Source: a plasmid
NCBI RefSeq assembly: GCF_056746865.1
Contig: NZ_JBWKMP010000003.1
Length of the DNA stretch: 64,000 nt
Direction: 5' to 3' (one strand)
Of the stretch, positions 11,835 through 18,447 are shown piece by piece. Within the stretch, counting starts at the first letter, position 1. Every line of letters begins with the position of its first letter. Below the pieces are notes generated by a model that was not told the DNA's origin, searched no databases, and was given only the letters and a program-made list of their open reading frames with translations. Both the position numbers and the translations under genes were made by a program.

Positions 11835-12187
11835 TTCTTTTCACATTCCTTAGTCCATTTTTCAATGTTCATTTTGGCAATATCAGTCATTCCATCACCT
11901 AAGAAATACTTTTTCCGGTATGTCTTGCACTTAAACCACACTACAACAGCCACCAGCCAGAAAATAAAAGGCCATACAGCAATACCAACGACAGCCGCGA
12001 TAAAGCCCAATAGCCATAAATGAAGCTCTCCAACTTCTGTTTCCGGCAATATTCTTAAAGAATTAAACAGCAGGCTGAACGAATGGTCGTATGCATTGGC
12101 GGTATAAGACATGCAATCCATATAATTAAAGTCATAGCCTGCGGCTGCCGCCCATAATGGGCGGTCAAGAAAATGTTTTAGTGTCAT
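11816..12187 (-). CDS. putative membrane protein
   Basis: Two strongly hydrophobic segments (LWLLGFIAAVVGIAVWPFIFWLVAVVVWF); short overlap with the downstream gene. Confidence 0.4.
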   Translation of the reverse strand: MTLKHFLDRPLWAAAAGYDFNYMDCMSYTANAYDHSFSLLFNSLRILPETEVGELHLWLLGFIAAVVGIAVWPFIFWLVAVVVWFKCKTYRKKYFLGDGMTDIAKMNIEKWTKECEKKWRKKK

Positions 12188-12196
12188 TATATAAAT

Positions 12197-12490
12197 TTAA
12201 GGTTCAGACCAGTTATCTTCAATAGCAATGCTTAATCTTTGTAGCCATTCTGCTAATTTCAGCATTGCTTCTCTTTCGCTTAAACCACGAGGAAAATCAT
12301 CAAGCGAAATTGTTGGCTTGAATCCCCCGCAATTATCCATTTCAACTGTCAGATTTTGTTCCAGCACGGTATTTCTTACGCGGCTATTGTGCCGAAGCAA
12401 ATATACTGAGCGTGATTTATTGGTTTTGTGGTCTAGCTTATATTCGGTAAGTATCATCTGGCTTTTGCCATGATTATTACCTCTCCACAT
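12197..12490 (-). CDS. hypothetical protein
   Basis: Start at the internal ATG with GTGAGG Shine-Dalgarno; the upstream part of the track ORF is the alternate frame of a separate small ORF. Confidence 0.4.
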   Translation of the reverse strand: MWRGNNHGKSQMILTEYKLDHKTNKSRSVYLLRHNSRVRNTVLEQNLTVEMDNCGGFKPTISLDDFPRGLSEREAMLKLAEWLQRLSIAIEDNWSEP

Positions 12491-12497
12491 ACTTACC

Positions 12498-12620
12498 TCA
12501 CTTAATAAAACAACTCCATGCGTAGTTGATGATTTTTTCCCACGTAATATAAATCTGCACTCCGGCAGTAAAACCAAAGCCAACAATTGCTGAAAAAATC
12601 AAAACATTTACTTTTGACAT
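12498..12620 (-). CDS. small hydrophobic peptide (40 aa)
   Basis: MSKVNVLIFSAIVGFGFTAGVQIYITWEKIINYAWSCFIK; ORF found by eye, below the track's size cutoff. Confidence 0.25.
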   Translation of the reverse strand: MSKVNVLIFSAIVGFGFTAGVQIYITWEKIINYAWSCFIK

Positions 12621-12668
12621 TATAAATTTTCTCTCGGTGTCGTAGGTGATAGCACCATAATTGATAAT

Positions 12669-12902
12669 TTAGTGAGTTAGCAGTTCCATTTTTTTGATGA
12701 TTTCCGCATGAGCATCATCGTTATCAACACTTAGCTCGTTTAATGCTTCTCGCACTACATCAACTTCTTCAGGCTGAAAGAAGTCGTCGCGGTAATCACC
12801 AAATAGAACCGAAACCAGCCTGCCACCAGCAACATCAAGATTGGCGCTAACAGGTGGCTCTTTGCCATCCTCAAATTCGACTACAAAAGTTAATTTTCCC
12901 AT
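12669..12902 (-). CDS. hypothetical protein
   Basis: 77-aa acidic ORF in the operon frame chain. Confidence 0.4.
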   Translation of the reverse strand: MGKLTFVVEFEDGKEPPVSANLDVAGGRLVSVLFGDYRDDFFQPEEVDVVREALNELSVDNDDAHAEIIKKMELLTH

Positions 12903-12978
12903 CGTTACCCCCAGAAGATAAAAATAGCGGCAATCGCCATAGCTACGCCTACAATCGCAAATGCTTCAGGCCAGCTTA

Positions 12979-13239
12979 TTACCTCACCTCCAGTCTCCAT
13001 ACCGCCTGACCAATCCGGCTGGCATGGGTATCTTTGGATACTGTTCCATCTTTAGCCAGCTCCATAAGAATTTTGCGCAAATCTGCCGAACGCCATTCTT
13101 CATCAGGAAATTCCTTCTCCATTGCCAACCGCAGATTCCAGGTTGCTATCGTGAATGGATATTCCCCGCCGAGAGCTTTCTCTTGCAGGGCAGCACGGGA
13201 ACGTATCACCTGCAAAACCTTCTCTTTTACATCCATCAT
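12979..13239 (-). CDS. hypothetical protein
   Basis: Start at ATG with AGGAGG Shine-Dalgarno (MMDVKEKV..); overlaps the stop of the upstream gene. Confidence 0.35.
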   Translation of the reverse strand: MMDVKEKVLQVIRSRAALQEKALGGEYPFTIATWNLRLAMEKEFPDEEWRSADLRKILMELAKDGTVSKDTHASRIGQAVWRLEVR

Positions 13240-13934
13240 TTTGCCTCCTGCGGCGGTTCTGGTAGCGGCATCCAGTGTGATGGTATCCACGACGCACCAG
13301 GTATTACCCACCCATCATTAGCGTCAGGATGCCCCGGGATGTAAGTCGCCCATTTCATTCGCCAGTCACCTTTCCTGTCAAACTCCCTGGCAACAAGAAC
13401 GGCTGTTTTGGTATCCGGCATTCGCTCACTACAGCTTATCCAACTATCCGGAATTACCGGATAGTTGCCCGACAGCTTGTTCAACTTGTAAGTCTGGCTT
13501 ACAGGTTTGGCACCATGAAGCATGGCGTCGCTCCGCTCTATGCCATCCAGCGCGATTCGCAGTGCCTGAATTGTGGTAGAGCTATCGTTTGGGGCTATTC
13601 CATATCGCTCGAATACAGCTAAATGGTTGCGCATAATCTCAGGCGTAAGCTCTTTGTAAGCATAAGCAAGAGACTCTGATGCATTATCCGGCACAACCGA
13701 CGCAAGCGCGGCAGCATAAACAGGAATAACGTCCACTTGCTCTTTATTGCTTTCATCCGTTAAAGCCCAGAATAATTTCCCGGCCGGATGTTTGAAAATA
13801 TAAGCAATTGGTTCTGCTTCCAGCGATGCCAGAGCAATTTCATACGACCGTCGCTCAATATTGTCTCGCACGTCCAGGCTGCTGATACGCTCTTTGATTT
13901 CTTTAATCAGTTCTTTGTCGGTTAAAGTGGTCAT
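13236..13934 (-). CDS. DUF551-domain protein
   Basis: C-terminal segment (TAVLVAREFDRKGDW...WIPSHWMPLPEPP) matches the DUF551 signature as recalled. Confidence 0.5.
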   Translation of the reverse strand: MTTLTDKELIKEIKERISSLDVRDNIERRSYEIALASLEAEPIAYIFKHPAGKLFWALTDESNKEQVDVIPVYAAALASVVPDNASESLAYAYKELTPEIMRNHLAVFERYGIAPNDSSTTIQALRIALDGIERSDAMLHGAKPVSQTYKLNKLSGNYPVIPDSWISCSERMPDTKTAVLVAREFDRKGDWRMKWATYIPGHPDANDGWVIPGASWIPSHWMPLPEPPQEAK

Positions 13935-13944
13935 AAATTATGCC

Positions 13945-14181
13945 TCAGTTGTATCCGATTGGATTAACCGCAACAAGAACGCCATCCGCGAACAAATCTT
14001 TAATGAGGTGTTCGCTCGGCTCGCCTTTTTCGTACTCTTCAATAAGGTAAGTGTCTCCATCTTCATTGATATAAACAGGAAGGATGGAGCCGTTGATAAA
14101 GTAGGTTCCGTTGTTATCGAGGATTTTTGCCTCGGCGATTTGTTTTTTGGTAAAACGCTCTTCTTTTGTCAAAGTTGCCAT
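13945..14181 (-). CDS. hypothetical protein
   Basis: Start at the internal ATG (MATLTKEERF..). Confidence 0.35.
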   Translation of the reverse strand: MATLTKEERFTKKQIAEAKILDNNGTYFINGSILPVYINEDGDTYLIEEYEKGEPSEHLIKDLFADGVLVAVNPIGYN

Positions 14182-14182
14182 A

Positions 14183-14401
14183 TCAGCTTTCCTTATATGG
14201 GTTGATTTTGTTGTGCAATGTGTTGAACGACGCCCATACCACGTCGTTATACAATTCAATAACTGGCTCAATTATTTTCCCGATTCCCCATACCAGAATT
14301 AACGGGGATATCGGTATCATCAACACGATAAACAGAATGAGAAACAGAAATTCTGTTATTCGGCTTCTTTGCGGATATTCTTTTCTGAATAATGTTGGCA
14401 C
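14183..14401 (-). CDS. small membrane protein
   Basis: GTG start after AAGGAGAG; hydrophobic core ITEFLFLILFIVLMIPISPLILVWGIG. Confidence 0.35.
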   Translation of the reverse strand: MPTLFRKEYPQRSRITEFLFLILFIVLMIPISPLILVWGIGKIIEPVIELYNDVVWASFNTLHNKINPYKES

Positions 14402-14402
14402 A

Positions 14403-14624
14403 TCACTCTCCTTTGCCCGCAGCTTTCGCCTGCTCTTTAGCAAGTCGCTCCGCTTCTCTGAAATCCCAATCCACTCGATGTGCGATATCAATTGCAGAAC
14501 GCACGGTTCGTTCAATTAGCGTATCCAGGTTATCAATTGTCATTGCCATATCTGGATTTCGAGATAAAATCTCCGCCCTCTGAATCTGCCAGTTGTTACA
14601 GGTTTCAAGTAATGAGTTAGCCAT
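14403..14624 (-). CDS. hypothetical protein
   Basis: ATG preceded by AAGGAGA (MANSLLETCNNWQ..). Confidence 0.4.
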   Translation of the reverse strand: MANSLLETCNNWQIQRAEILSRNPDMAMTIDNLDTLIERTVRSAIDIAHRVDWDFREAERLAKEQAKAAGKGE

Positions 14625-14625
14625 A

Positions 14626-14814
14626 TCACTCTCCTTTAGTGCGCAAGTGGTTTTTCCAGCGGTTTTGCGCCGCGCTGGGCTTTTTGCAAAAACCACAATC
14701 CATCATCCCGTAATATTTCATCAACCCCATCCGTCGGTTGCTGAGTCTCACCCACTGCCAGACGCCAGGAGCGTTTCTACGAACTAACAGAATCTTTGCT
14801 TTACGGTTTTTCAT
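14626..14814 (-). CDS. small basic protein (MKNRKAK family, copy 1)
   Basis: 62 aa, Lys/Arg-rich, with CGFC; start overlaps the stop of copy 2 (ATGA). Confidence 0.4.
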   Translation of the reverse strand: MKNRKAKILLVRRNAPGVWQWVRLSNRRMGLMKYYGMMDCGFCKKPSAAQNRWKNHLRTKGE

Positions 14815-14987
14815 CTTACAGCGTACCCTTTCTTCCGCCTGTTCTGTGACGCAGTAGGCTTACGCTTTGCGGCAAAAGCCACCTGACCAAATGGATGGAG
14901 TACCGCTATCTTATGGTTGCTAATAACCAGCTCCACCACACGCACAGGTCGCTGTAAAAAAAGTCGTTTTGCCTTACGGTTTTTCAT
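14811..14987 (-). CDS. small basic protein (MKNRKAK family, copy 2)
   Basis: 58 aa (MKNRKAKRLFLQRPVRV..); AGGAGAG Shine-Dalgarno; found by eye, below the track cutoff. Confidence 0.35.
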   Translation of the reverse strand: MKNRKAKRLFLQRPVRVVELVISNHKIAVLHPFGQVAFAAKRKPTASQNRRKKGYAVR

Positions 14988-15079
14988 CGCTTTGCTCTCC
15001 TGCGTCTCTTTGCTGCTCGTCGTGCCGCTGCAATACCGGTATGGCGGCGCTTTGGTGCCGGGATGATGTTGTCAGCCAT
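14984..15079 (-). CDS. tiny Arg-rich ORF (31 aa)
   Basis: MADNIIPAPKRRHTGIAAARRAAKRRRRAKR; stop overlaps the next ATG; no clear Shine-Dalgarno. Confidence 0.2.
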   Translation of the reverse strand: MADNIIPAPKRRHTGIAAARRAAKRRRRAKR

Positions 15080-15159
15080 CAGGACATACGGCTTTGCAAT
15101 TAGCGCAGAAGCCCAAAAACGAGTCGGGTACGGTAACAAGCCGATACATGCCACACGCA

Positions 15160-15912
15160 TTACTCACCTCCTTTGATGCGAATGCCTGCGGCGCGGATTG
15201 CAGCGATGACTTCAGAAACTTTGTATGCCATTACCGTTTGGTAATCATCGTGAAAATCTGTTCGATGAAGCATGCTGCTACGTTCCGGGAGCGATATTTC
15301 CCGAGCATCCAGTTCCTTAACGCGTTCCTCCAGTTCGTAGACCCTGCATTGTTCTCTATCATCAATCAGATATACCCCAAGACATTCGCTTTCTACCCAA
15401 CCGCCAAAATCATGATCGTAACGCTCACATGAAAACTCACCGTCACCGTCCTTTGTTGGAATGGTGTAACTATCTAATGGGCCACCATATGTCGGCACAT
15501 TTCCCAATGTTGGATGCTCAATCCACATGAAAAATGCACGTCCGGTTATTGGGCAAATATCTGGCCGCCATTGGTTACGAACAGCCTTGGTTTCGGATAA
15601 TTCTTCAGCGTGTTGTTTTACTTCCTCAAGCTCAACTCTCAGCTTCCCTACCGTTAGCGCAATATCCTCGTTCTCCTGATCGCGGCGTTTTATGTATTGC
15701 TGGTTTCTTTCCCGTTCATCCAGCAGCGCCAGCACGGTTTCTGGTCCGGTCAGAAATTTGAAGGCGTTGAGCGCATCAATATCCACACCGTAATCTTTAA
15801 GTTCCTGTTCACTTAACAAATCATCATCAGCTGGCAACATTAACAGGCGTTCCATTGCTGGAATTGCACGTTCCGCCGCCTCACGCAGTGCCTGGTAATT
15901 AATTTCGCTCAC
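15160..15912 (-). CDS. Ea22-like family protein
   Basis: Contains [35 protein letters not shown] and the C-terminal [10 protein letters not shown] typical of Ea22-like prophage proteins; GTG start overlaps the upstream stop. Confidence 0.6.
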   Translation of the reverse strand: MSEINYQALREAAERAIPAMERLLMLPADDDLLSEQELKDYGVDIDALNAFKFLTGPETVLALLDERERNQQYIKRRDQENEDIALTVGKLRVELEEVKQHAEELSETKAVRNQWRPDICPITGRAFFMWIEHPTLGNVPTYGGPLDSYTIPTKDGDGEFSCERYDHDFGGWVESECLGVYLIDDREQCRVYELEERVKELDAREISLPERSSMLHRTDFHDDYQTVMAYKVSEVIAAIRAAGIRIKGGE

Positions 15913-16571
15913 TGGTTGCCTCCTTTGCGAAGCTGGGCAGCAAAGTCAACTAACCACTCAGTCATTTCAACCTTCCCTACCAGGTCGGAACCAGGGTGCA
16001 TACAGCAATCACTCTGCGCCGCTTTGAAATCCTTACACTCATATTCTTTGGCCACCAGATTTTTTGCAGCTTCTATAGCAGCATCCACCCCCTGCGCCCG
16101 CACTTCAGCCAGAAAAGCATCGGTAGCTGGAGTTTCGCTGTGGTGTAGGGCATCGTTGATAATCATTGCAGCAACACCAGCCTGCCCTGCATCCGTGACC
16201 GACACATGCTCAAGAGTTACGGCCATTGCGTGTTTCAGCCCAGCGTTCTCTGCCACCAGCGCAGCGATATTAGTCTCAAGCTCTGAAATTCGGCACGTGG
16301 CATCAATATTTGTGTCCTCCAAGCACTTAATTTCACCAAGCAGCTCCAGTGCAACCTTTGGGTTGAACGCGGCAACATGACGAGCGTTGTTCTCTGCATT
16401 TTTCTGTCCATCAAAGCCGGTCCATTTGATAACGTCTTCACATCGTTCATCACCGGGCGTGTGCACCGCATAAGTACCAGTATCCGTCGAAATAAATGCG
16501 ACCCATTCGTCTGGTGTTGCCTTTTCTGCCGCCTCACGCAGTACCTGATAGTCAATTGTCATTCTCGCCAT
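15909..16571 (-). CDS. accessory protein, [13 protein letters not shown] / QLRKGGNQ paralog family
   Basis: Shares the TDAFLAE(V/I)RA motif and C-terminal QLRKGGNQ with 21036-21803, 22951-23454 and 17200-17439. Confidence 0.5.
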   Translation of the reverse strand: MARMTIDYQVLREAAEKATPDEWVAFISTDTGTYAVHTPGDERCEDVIKWTGFDGQKNAENNARHVAAFNPKVALELLGEIKCLEDTNIDATCRISELETNIAALVAENAGLKHAMAVTLEHVSVTDAGQAGVAAMIINDALHHSETPATDAFLAEVRAQGVDAAIEAAKNLVAKEYECKDFKAAQSDCCMHPGSDLVGKVEMTEWLVDFAAQLRKGGNQ

Positions 16572-17203
16572 CCTTCACAGTTGTAATCACTACAGCCTTC
16601 AAAATCATATGGGCTGTACTGCCAGGTTATTTTTCCGCAATGCGGACAATTCCAACGCACCTTCCCGCTTCGCGACTTCTTTCTTCTGTTCTGCTCTTTC
16701 AACCAGTCAGGCATGATCAAACCTGCGCCCTGAACCATTGTTCTGCGGTTAAAGTTATTGATATTGAACGTCCGGCGCTTTGCTGCATCAGCAATGGAAA
16801 ATGGCAACCAAACTATTCCTGGTTCGTTTTTGTTGGCGACGCTAAAGATGGTCGCTTTACTGAAGTCATCTGTTGGCAATCCACCGTGTTGAAGCCAGTA
16901 AACATCGTTGCCGTTCCAGCTACCTTTTTTGTAGGCCACATACGCAGTGCAATCTGACTCAATCAGGCTTTCTGTAGGGATGTACTGGCAATCAACGTGC
17001 CACACAGCCATTGCATCCACGCTATCAGCGCAAACAGGCTGATCGATATCTCGCCCACAATTCCAGGCTTTTTGGGCTTCTTCCAGCGTGTAAACATGAG
17101 CGCGATCGATATCAGAGCTATAACCATTGCCGTTATGGCAATGGAATGAGGCGTTATTACCCACAGTTTCACGCAAGCACATCATGTAAAAACGGTTACT
17201 CAC
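16559..17203 (-). CDS. zinc-ribbon protein
   Basis: GTG start overlapping the upstream stop after AAGGAGG; C-terminal CPHCG...CEGW zinc ribbon. Confidence 0.45.
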   Translation of the reverse strand: MSNRFYMMCLRETVGNNASFHCHNGNGYSSDIDRAHVYTLEEAQKAWNCGRDIDQPVCADSVDAMAVWHVDCQYIPTESLIESDCTAYVAYKKGSWNGNDVYWLQHGGLPTDDFSKATIFSVANKNEPGIVWLPFSIADAAKRRTFNINNFNRRTMVQGAGLIMPDWLKEQNRRKKSRSGKVRWNCPHCGKITWQYSPYDFEGCSDYNCEGWRE

Positions 17204-17439
17204 TGGTTGCCTCCTTGGCGGAGTTGCGCTGCGATGCATGAAAAAAAAGACTCCCGAGTGTGACAGTTAAGAGCTGGTGCGAACGCCGCGTTAAGAACGG
17301 CGGCATCACAGCCGTCATCAATATAGAGCGCAATTTTTTTCTCCAGGCGCGCTTTGGCTTCCTGCAACTGCATACCCCGGCACGCACGCGGGATATAATC
17401 AGCAATTTGAGCGATAGCTTTTTCGTTCTGTTTAAACAT
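17200..17439 (-). CDS. small protein with C-terminal AAQLRQGGNQ
   Basis: 79 aa; its conserved C-terminal codons double as the Shine-Dalgarno for the next gene. Confidence 0.45.
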   Translation of the reverse strand: MFKQNEKAIAQIADYIPRACRGMQLQEAKARLEKKIALYIDDGCDAAVLNAAFAPALNCHTRESFFSCIAAQLRQGGNQ

Positions 17440-17635
17440 GCTTCACCTCGATAGGCTTGATGGTGTCTAACAGCAGTCGGCGGCGCGTATTTTCTGCAAA
17501 ATGGCGGCGTCCAGTTTCTTTGTGGTAAAACTCGTTTTTGCCGACGACCCACATCCGCTCTGTTTGGTGCAGTTTTTTTACCTTCGGGCCATCTTTGGTG
17601 ATCACGGTACCGGTATGGGTTTTTACGATTGTCAT
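17432..17635 (-). CDS. hypothetical protein
   Basis: 67-aa basic ORF within the operon chain. Confidence 0.35.
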   Translation of the reverse strand: MTIVKTHTGTVITKDGPKVKKLHQTERMWVVGKNEFYHKETGRRHFAENTRRRLLLDTIKPIEVKHV

Positions 17636-17718
17636 GCCACTACCTATTCGAACAGATGAACGAGACAGGCCGATGCTCGTCCACCTGAAAAACTGACGAT
17701 TTGATGCATACTCACGGT

Positions 17719-18447
17719 TTATTCCTGAATGCGCTTAAACTCGATTACCCACACCCAGGGATTAGCGTTCCAGCTTTCTTCACCATAGATGGATTCCCAC
17801 AGGCGCTGGAACGCAACCTTGGCCATTGCGAAATCCCCCTTGGGAGTAAGGAATGTTCCCGGGTGATCAGGAAGCAAACTTCCAGCAGGCGGAACGCCCT
17901 CAGCCCTTGCATCGCATTCGCTGATATCGTTCAACCGTTCAACGCGCACGTTGGTAATTTCCAACAGAATGCGTGATGCCCATCGCGGCATGTGAATTGA
18001 TGGACGCCACCCACCATCAAACTTTTCATTCACAGTGTGAGGTTTCCAGTCGGCATCATCGGGTATCGACCATAAGCCGTAATCACCAGGTTTTTGCTCG
18101 CAACTGGCCCGATAAATCCTTGCTGCGTTCTTCTCATCGCCACGACAAAGGTTGTCGTTCCAGTCCACACTGCAACCATCCTCATTGCCTAATATCGCCC
18201 ATGTTTCACGAACCCAAATTCGATCGCCGACGATACCAAATGGGCAATTGAAAACACTGCTTACACCATCAGCCCCGTACCACTGAAAACCTGCACCAAT
18301 TTTTCTAACCATCACTGGTGCTTCTGGACCAACTTCCGCAGGCTGATTTTTCATTATCCGCCGCGTCTGCGTTTTCCTTCCTTCGAGGATGGCCCGGACC
18401 ATCTCATCGTTAAAAATCATCCCGCGTTCTTTCATTTTTTGATCCAC
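17719..18447 (-). CDS. ASCH-domain-like protein
   Basis: N-terminal FNDEMVRAILEGRKTQTRR and C-terminal WVWVIEFKRI resemble YqfB-type ASCH proteins. Confidence 0.45.
   Translation of the reverse strand: MDQKMKERGMIFNDEMVRAILEGRKTQTRRIMKNQPAEVGPEAPVMVRKIGAGFQWYGADGVSSVFNCPFGIVGDRIWVRETWAILGNEDGCSVDWNDNLCRGDEKNAARIYRASCEQKPGDYGLWSIPDDADWKPHTVNEKFDGGWRPSIHMPRWASRILLEITNVRVERLNDISECDARAEGVPPAGSLLPDHPGTFLTPKGDFAMAKVAFQRLWESIYGEESWNANPWVWVIEFKRIQE

Follow-up and report, generated by a model that had tools for sequence, protein, structure and literature searches.

The closest described counterparts of the small genes analysed here are the products of the exo-xis region, whose genes are transcribed early from pL and affect the choice between lysis and lysogeny (PMC8614690). 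Like the cassette described below where it occurs in Stx phages, these products are small early proteins of a pL-transcribed block, and they are thought to adjust both the lysis-lysogeny balance and host transcription (PMC8614690). The review of this region presents the genes downstream of ea22 in Stx phages as 'a variable set' with duplications and leaves the cassette ORFs untreated (PMC8614690). However, the exo-xis products share neither sequence nor fold similarity with the cassette proteins, and lambda itself does not carry the cassette. In the DNA studied here, moreover, the exo-xis block lies inside a P1/D6-like phage-plasmid and not in a lambdoid prophage.

Two further groups of proteins invite comparison. 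The N proteins of lambda, P22 and phi21 and the Nun protein of HK022 are encoded at the head of their operons and act on nut/boxB sites. Their ARM peptides and two stretches of the cassette proteins, the RRHTGIAAARRAAKRRRRAKR run in the tail of ORF-B and the ...SAAQNRWKNH segment of ORF-A, are presumably all early-operon phage products of the same short, basic, probably helical kind that recognises RNA hairpins. The likeness has clear limits: no homology is detectable, the cassette stands in mid-operon, the A proteins are predicted to be folded mini-domains rather than disordered, and for B the resemblance is compositional only. The other comparison is with the dsRBD and HicA domains, whose alpha-beta-beta-beta-alpha order of elements and size (about 60 aa) are also those of the predicted structure of A.

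The window, by which is meant the whole 64,000-nucleotide stretch of plasmid DNA that was analysed, is a P1/D6-like phage-plasmid. Over its first 25 kb it matches phage D6 and P1-like phage-plasmids, and this part includes pacA/pacB, c1 and a tyrosine recombinase. A 1.1-kb segment around the cassette also matches Stx-converting lambdoid phages and many E. coli prophages, and the gene neighbourhood is common to 933W, Sakai Sp5, Min27, RCS47 and D6. In 933W and in Sakai prophage Sp5, the cassette genes immediately follow the Ea22-like gene in the early-left operon, within its exo-xis part. In the window, the cassette is one part of a long series of closely spaced minus-strand genes, and the gene order there, read 5' to 3' on that strand, is the Ea22-like gene, B, A2, A1 and the MANSLLET gene. 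The features are as follows.

15160-15912, minus strand: Ea22-like gene upstream of ORF-B; its stop overlaps the start of B.
15161-15187, minus strand: 5' junction of the cassette, formed by the final codons of the preceding gene (...AGIRIKGGE, stop), with AGGAGGTGA as the Shine-Dalgarno sequence for ORF-B.
14984-15160, minus strand: ORF-B, 58 aa, MRVACIGLLPYPTRFWASALIAKPYVLMADNIIPAPKRRHTGIAAARRAAKRRRRAKR; PHROG 13831; RefSeq WP_001261538.1.
14984-15079, minus strand: the short version of ORF-B given in the initial annotation, 31 aa, from the internal ATG at 15079 (MADNIIP...); not an independent gene.
14811-14987, minus strand: ORF-A2, 58 aa, MKNRKAK...GYAVR; PHROG 1380; the upstream paralogue.
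14626-14814, minus strand: ORF-A1, 62 aa, MKNRKAK...LRTKGE; PHROG 1380; RefSeq WP_000797279.1; the downstream paralogue.
ATG at 14624, minus strand: MANSLLET gene, next after A1; its start lies 1 base past the A1 stop.

The initial annotation had described three tandem, overlapping, tiny basic ORFs. The overlaps and the basic character are real, on the minus strand, but the first ORF was mis-delimited, and the feature extends over 14626-15160 rather than 14626-15079. The start ATG of B shares one base with the stop of the Ea22-like gene (TAATG) and is preceded by AGGAGGTGA. B and A2 overlap by four nucleotides (ATGA, 14984-14987), with CAGGAGAG located 9 nt upstream, and A2 and A1 overlap in the same manner (ATGA, 14811-14814), with a weak AAGGG as the Shine-Dalgarno sequence. 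The junction between A1 and the MANSLLET gene reads TGATATG, and its AAGGAG Shine-Dalgarno sequence is built from the last codons of A1. At the cassette junctions, the stop and start codons overlap or are closely spaced, with the Shine-Dalgarno sequence inside the upstream ORF.

This geometry, read from the sequence alone, suggests translational coupling. Ribosomes finishing the Ea22-like gene would reinitiate on B by way of TAATG and the strong AGGAGG Shine-Dalgarno sequence, would pass from B to A2 and from A2 to A1 through the ATGA overlaps, and would then move on to the next gene. Because the stop and start codons overlap, the three products would be made together from one mRNA. No promoter or terminator is found within the cassette, the region has fewer promoter-like sites than shuffled versions of it, and the sole nearby promoter-like site (14543-14570) is on the plus strand.

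The coding status of the ORFs was examined in relatives. A scan of IMG/VR with the A start motif, which sets the first 20 nt of every A unit so that these carry no weight, gave 120 loci with 87 unique full-length A units, whose sequences fall into about nine widely differing classes. None of the 87 has a stop in frame 0, and each of the other frames has 1-7 stops. Values of pN/pS were obtained from pairwise Nei-Gojobori counts with the same alignments in two shifted frames as the control; the pairs are not phylogenetically independent, which these controls on the same sequences mitigate. For the A family, pN/pS is 0.29 in frame versus 0.88 and 1.25 in the shifted frames, and the variable middle of A taken alone gives 0.29 versus 0.69 and 1.02. 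The A2 subtype is exactly 177 nt long in 17 of 17 unique variants, even though pS reaches 0.42, and its pN/pS is 0.39 versus 0.80 and 1.20. The 49 unique variants of ORF-B (52-60 aa) have no in-frame stops, their indels are all in frame, and pN/pS is 0.39 versus 1.08 and 0.98. The initial annotation had made its proposal depend on conservation of the reading frames in relatives, and many phages do keep these frames, which are under purifying selection. B, A2 and A1 are thus very probably real protein-coding genes. The Sakai RIBOseq supplements contain no match to the ORF sequences, the locus tags or the coordinate prefixes, and a repressed prophage is expected to be silent there.

The 31-aa arginine-rich ORF initially taken as a gene covers only the C-terminal half of a longer, conserved ORF of 58 aa that starts at ATG 15160. 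The long form is favoured because it matches the PHROG 13831 HMM over its full length (E = 1.1e-41, residues 1-58 on profile positions 1-58 of 58). The N-terminal half, upstream of ATG 15079, has a pN/pS of 0.42 versus 0.87 and 1.11 in the shifted frames. The internal Met is absent or substituted in several variants, among them that of phage 933W, in which it is lost with an in-frame 7-codon deletion. Since the N-terminal half is under selection and several variants lack the internal Met, the real B is the 58-aa form. The exact 58-aa sequence occurs in at least 1000 contigs, and the exact 31-aa sequence has no match in a collection of 15 billion proteins. The N-terminal half of B is moderately hydrophobic and its C-terminal tail is arginine-rich; the conserved part is this tail, PKRRHTGIAAARRAAK(K/R)RRRAKR.

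A1 and A2, which both begin MKNRKAK, were correctly recognised as paralogues. They have 37% identity (BLASTP E = 5e-10), and both are full members of PHROG 1380, A1 with E = 1e-40 (residues 1-62 on profile positions 1-62 of 62) and A2 with E = 6.5e-23 (residues 1-58 on positions 1-60 of 62). The 20-nt start motif of the A units occurs exactly twice in the window, versus an expected 0.01. The two differ in their core and tail: A2 has an ISNHK core and a ...QNRRKKGYAVR tail, A1 an SNRR core and a ...SAAQNRWKNHLRTKGE tail. The family is a small one: when 1.84 billion representative proteins were searched exhaustively with its profile, only 49 clusters matched, and where the source names an organism, this is Escherichia or Salmonella. 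Homologues of A are present in Stx phages, phiV10, TL-2011b, D6, RCS47, a Salmonella phage and a Yersinia phage. Distant members, with 35-45% identity, keep the pattern M(K/N)NRKA(K/R)xLL ... (I/V)SNR(R/K) ... G ... SAAQNRWKNH. One distant relative lies in the early-right operon of another prophage without B, and the neighbourhoods of two distant relatives (L125 and L126) are other variable phage regions in which B is absent and no neighbour is informative.

The ORFs recur in a few fixed arrangements. At the loci found via A, these are BA (46), BAA (36), A (22) and AA (11). At the 79 loci found independently via B, A follows directly after B in all 78 that have downstream room, as BAA in 39 and as BA in 31. 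Where A units are paired, the first always has the ...GYAVR tail overlapping the next A start, and the second is always of the ...QNRWKNH... type. The genes on the 5' side of B have at least nine unrelated bodies, all of which end in (A/T)GIRI(K/N)GGE (loci L127-L205), and the junction AGGAGGTGAGTA(A/G)TG is present in 76 of 76 loci. Because these junctions are conserved, the mobile unit runs from inside the 3' end of the preceding gene to the Shine-Dalgarno-bearing tail of A1, and the boundary at 15161-15187 looks like a conserved junction for both recombination and translation initiation. Conserved gene-boundary sequences have long been noted in mosaic lambdoid genomes, and the cassette boundaries fit this pattern. 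Among 5,426 complete E. coli genomes, 601 contain cassette DNA, which is found on chromosomes at 417 places and on plasmids at 296. In 125 genomes, at least 80% of the window's own B-A2-A1 version is present. As B-A or B-A-A, the cassette recurs in Stx and other lambdoid phages, where it belongs to the accessory early region, and in P1/D6-like phage-plasmids.

All three cassette proteins are strongly basic. A1, A2 and B contain 16, 16 and 15 Lys and Arg residues and only 2, 1 and 1 Asp and Glu residues, respectively, giving pI values of 11.3, 12.0 and 12.0 and a net charge of +14 to +15. Their GRAVY values are -0.87, -0.53 and -0.22, so that none has the hydrophobicity needed to span a membrane. 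A is unusual in composition, being rich in W, R, C and M. An AlphaFold model of A from an alignment of 24 sequences is poor (pLDDT 62.5), and a Foldseek search with it against the PDB gave nothing useful. With 51 sequences, including distant members, the model of A1 improves to a pLDDT of 81.9 (pTM 0.53) and consists of a helix (residues 4-11), a three-stranded sheet (19-23, 28-33 and 38-43) and a second helix (48-59), together forming a mini-domain. The invariant or near-invariant positions of the family are N3, R4, K5, A6, L9, S25, N26, A48, Q50, N51 and R52. On the model, the conserved polar and basic residues would fall in three places: N3-R4-K5 in helix 1, S25-N26 in the turn between strands 1 and 2, and Q50-N51-R52 in the first turn of helix 2. 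These places (helix 1, the strand 1-2 turn and the start of helix 2) coincide with the three regions through which dsRBDs contact dsRNA. Nevertheless, the fold of A does not superpose on known dsRBDs and its sequence does not match Pfam dsrm. Pfam, NCBIfam and PDB profile searches show no homology to nucleic-acid-binding families, and the PDB profile searches returned only chance matches, to 'SSAQNRK' of the MS2 coat protein (E = 1) and to a light-harvesting protein (E = 2). Resemblances to bL33, bL34, NUMOD4/HNH_3, AP2, the homeodomain 'QNRR' and the lambda N ARM were also considered and dropped, none being backed by a profile search.

The high charge and the polar and basic nature of the invariant residues suggest that the proteins bind a polyanion. 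Most plausibly this is RNA or DNA, of host or phage, and by binding it A and B would tune early gene expression or host physiology, an accessory early role of the kind reported for other exo-xis genes. Nucleic-acid binding taken by itself, to which charge and conservation pattern point, is a plausible but tentative proposal. The combined reading, in which three real genes form a conserved, mobile B-A(-A) cassette, are co-translated and have products that bind nucleic acid, is the one towards which we lean, with modest confidence. A more specific version is doubtful: B-A(-A) might be an undescribed family of small nucleic-acid-binding proteins, in which A is a new alpha-beta3-alpha mini-fold and B its arginine-rich partner, with a specific host or phage RNA or DNA target early after infection or induction. 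If such a target existed, the lysis-lysogeny decision, and hence induction of Shiga-toxin phages, could be altered, or a host defence could be countered.

High positive charge is equally suited to an acidic protein partner, and the coding and conservation evidence is the same whichever kind of ligand is assumed. A and B could then be small modulators or inhibitors of a host or phage protein such as RNA polymerase, a ribosomal component, a nuclease or a defence protein. The compact folded mini-domain predicted for A would be suitable for protein-protein recognition, and the modelled exo-xis proteins point to RNA polymerase, Orf55 resembling T7 Gp2 and Orf73 being TraR-like (PMC8614690). The cassette proteins, however, have no similarity to Gp2, TraR or any known inhibitor, their charge is extreme, and the invariant residues of A are Asn, Arg, Lys, Gln and Ser with no hydrophobic patch, so that binding to an acidic protein appears rather unlikely. 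A toxic or host-killing role, either as growth-arresting basic peptides or as a small toxin-antitoxin-like pair with a HicA-like RNA-targeting toxin, is improbable, even though small basic early-operon phage proteins can kill the host and Kil is encoded in the same operon in 933W. The predicted order of a helix, three strands and a helix is that of HicA as well as of dsRBD folds, and one HicA entry is found among the weak AFDB50 matches, at rank 8 with a Foldseek E of 0.43. A HicA toxin was rejected on this weak match, on the lack of a Pfam or PADLOC match and of an invariant His, and on the identity of the neighbour, the 58-aa arginine-rich B, which is not HicB. A type I or Hok-like toxin, or any other membrane-type toxic peptide, is disfavoured by the negative GRAVY values of the proteins, by the lack of PADLOC or toxin-family matches, and by the absence of an antisense promoter within the cassette, of a terminator and of an Rfam sRNA.

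The remaining explanations concern the ORFs themselves. Stop/start overlaps at every junction would also be expected if the ORFs were pure ribosome relays whose peptides have no function. What follows each ORF, a Shine-Dalgarno sequence or a start codon, dictates its C-terminal tail, with LRTKGE before another gene and GYAVR before another A, and there are variants (P0054 and P0060) in which the middle is in another frame and both ends are in frame. This explanation is quite improbable, as amino-acid-level purifying selection extends to the middle of the ORF, the motifs persist at 35-45% identity and in genomic contexts without B, and the AlphaFold fold of A is confident. It is still harder to maintain that there are no genes here at all, and that the ORFs are chance ORFs, out-of-frame remnants of a larger gene or part of a non-coding DNA or RNA element. 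The omission of A2, and in some records of B, by PGAP would favour such a view, as would the odd composition of A and the existence inside A1 of an alternative-frame ORF (14636-14755) that resembles a typical soluble protein more closely and is found fused within P0041. Against it stand the stops and the pN/pS values near 1 in the other frames and the constant length of the A2-type variants. A non-coding RNA element was rejected, since there is no Rfam match (E up to 1, 12000-18000) and the 581-nt mRNA folds no better than shuffled sequences (z = 0.28). Frame-specific selection largely refutes the non-gene explanation, which is very improbable.

The cassette proteins are already catalogued, and they are ordinary, widespread phage accessory proteins rather than a new kind of system. 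As the initial annotation had stated, no function is assigned to them: the exact sequences occur in at least 1000 public contigs each, and all annotations seen are 'hypothetical', 'uncharacterised' or 'prophage protein'. PHROG 1380 and PHROG 13831 are both families of unknown function, without a name or structure, and the homologue of A is hypothetical or unannotated in 146 of 146 phage records. Pfam (A1 and 25 family members), NCBIfam and PADLOC give no match, and the literature searched contains no mention of the accessions, motif, PHROG ids or locus tags of the cassette. Annotation of the three ORFs is uneven. PGAP calls A1 and sometimes B, A2 is unannotated in the three RefSeq records whose feature tables were inspected, and six further records (H99-H104) have only two hypothetical proteins under a three-ORF cassette. 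In Sakai, the homologue of A1 is ECs_1168 and B is unannotated, falling in the gap between ECs_1168 and ECs_1169; B is also unannotated in one plasmid record, and the original 933W record has neither A nor B.

Three things lend the cassette modest interest: it occurs in Shiga-toxin phages, the predicted fold is unmatched, and its middle gene, A2, is routinely missed. It is common in E. coli, where the Stx2 phages of O157:H7 EDL933 and Sakai are among its carriers, and the P1-like phage-plasmids that carry it often bear resistance genes. In Stx phages it sits in the exo-xis region, and the products of this region affect prophage induction and, through it, toxin release. With all three ORFs being selected genes and B having 58 rather than 31 residues, it is a clean target for small-protein work.

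Several features of the surrounding sequences deserve mention. The 39-aa alternative-frame ORF at 14636-14755 on the minus strand (MGETQQPTDGVDEILRDDGLWFLQKAQRGAKPLEKPLAH, containing GETQQPTDG...) recurs in relatives and is fused into the database proteins P0041, P0054, P0060 and P0033. It was rejected as a gene, since stops are usual in the shifted frames, where pN/pS is 0.9-1.25; because this ratio is about 1, the proteins that carry the frame look like frameshift variants or gene-caller artefacts rather than products of a second gene. The AFDB entry A0AA34Z1L9, a 66-aa relative of A with 37% identity, is named '50S ribosomal protein L36'. The A family is not ribosomal protein bL36, as the profile search of all PDB chains returned no ribosomal protein (E up to 10) and Pfam gave no match, and the name is probably an annotation error.

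In 933W, the gene downstream of A, L0068 (L002 4306-4593), is annotated from a GTG start, so that its first 70 or so nucleotides lie over A in a different frame. The same GTG-extended ORF is present in the window at 14403-14696 on the minus strand. The true start is likely to be the ATG just after the A stop, as in Sakai ECs_1167. Chimeric ORFs are also found (P0035, P0001, P0049, P0091 and P0092), in which the first 30-40 residues of A are fused to DUF4014, a DUF551-type protein or the MAIAASYT protein encoded downstream, or in which an Ea22 N-terminus is fused to A; their existence shows that deletion and recombination are frequent at this locus. The ORF after the MANSLLET gene (14183-14515, minus strand) ends in ...MIPISPLILVWGIGKIIEPVIELYNDVVWASFNTLHNKINPYKES, and the matching protein in a near-identical plasmid is assigned to the DUF4014 family in RefSeq. 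On the other side of the cassette, the genes at 15160-15912, 15909-16571 and 17200-17439, all on the minus strand, have an Ea22-like N-terminus in common, M..I(N/D)YQ(A/V)LREAAE..., and end in tails that contain a Shine-Dalgarno sequence (...KGGE, ...KGGNQ and ...QGGNQ). These genes form a run of paralogous, mosaic Ea22-type genes in the P1/D6-like phage-plasmid.
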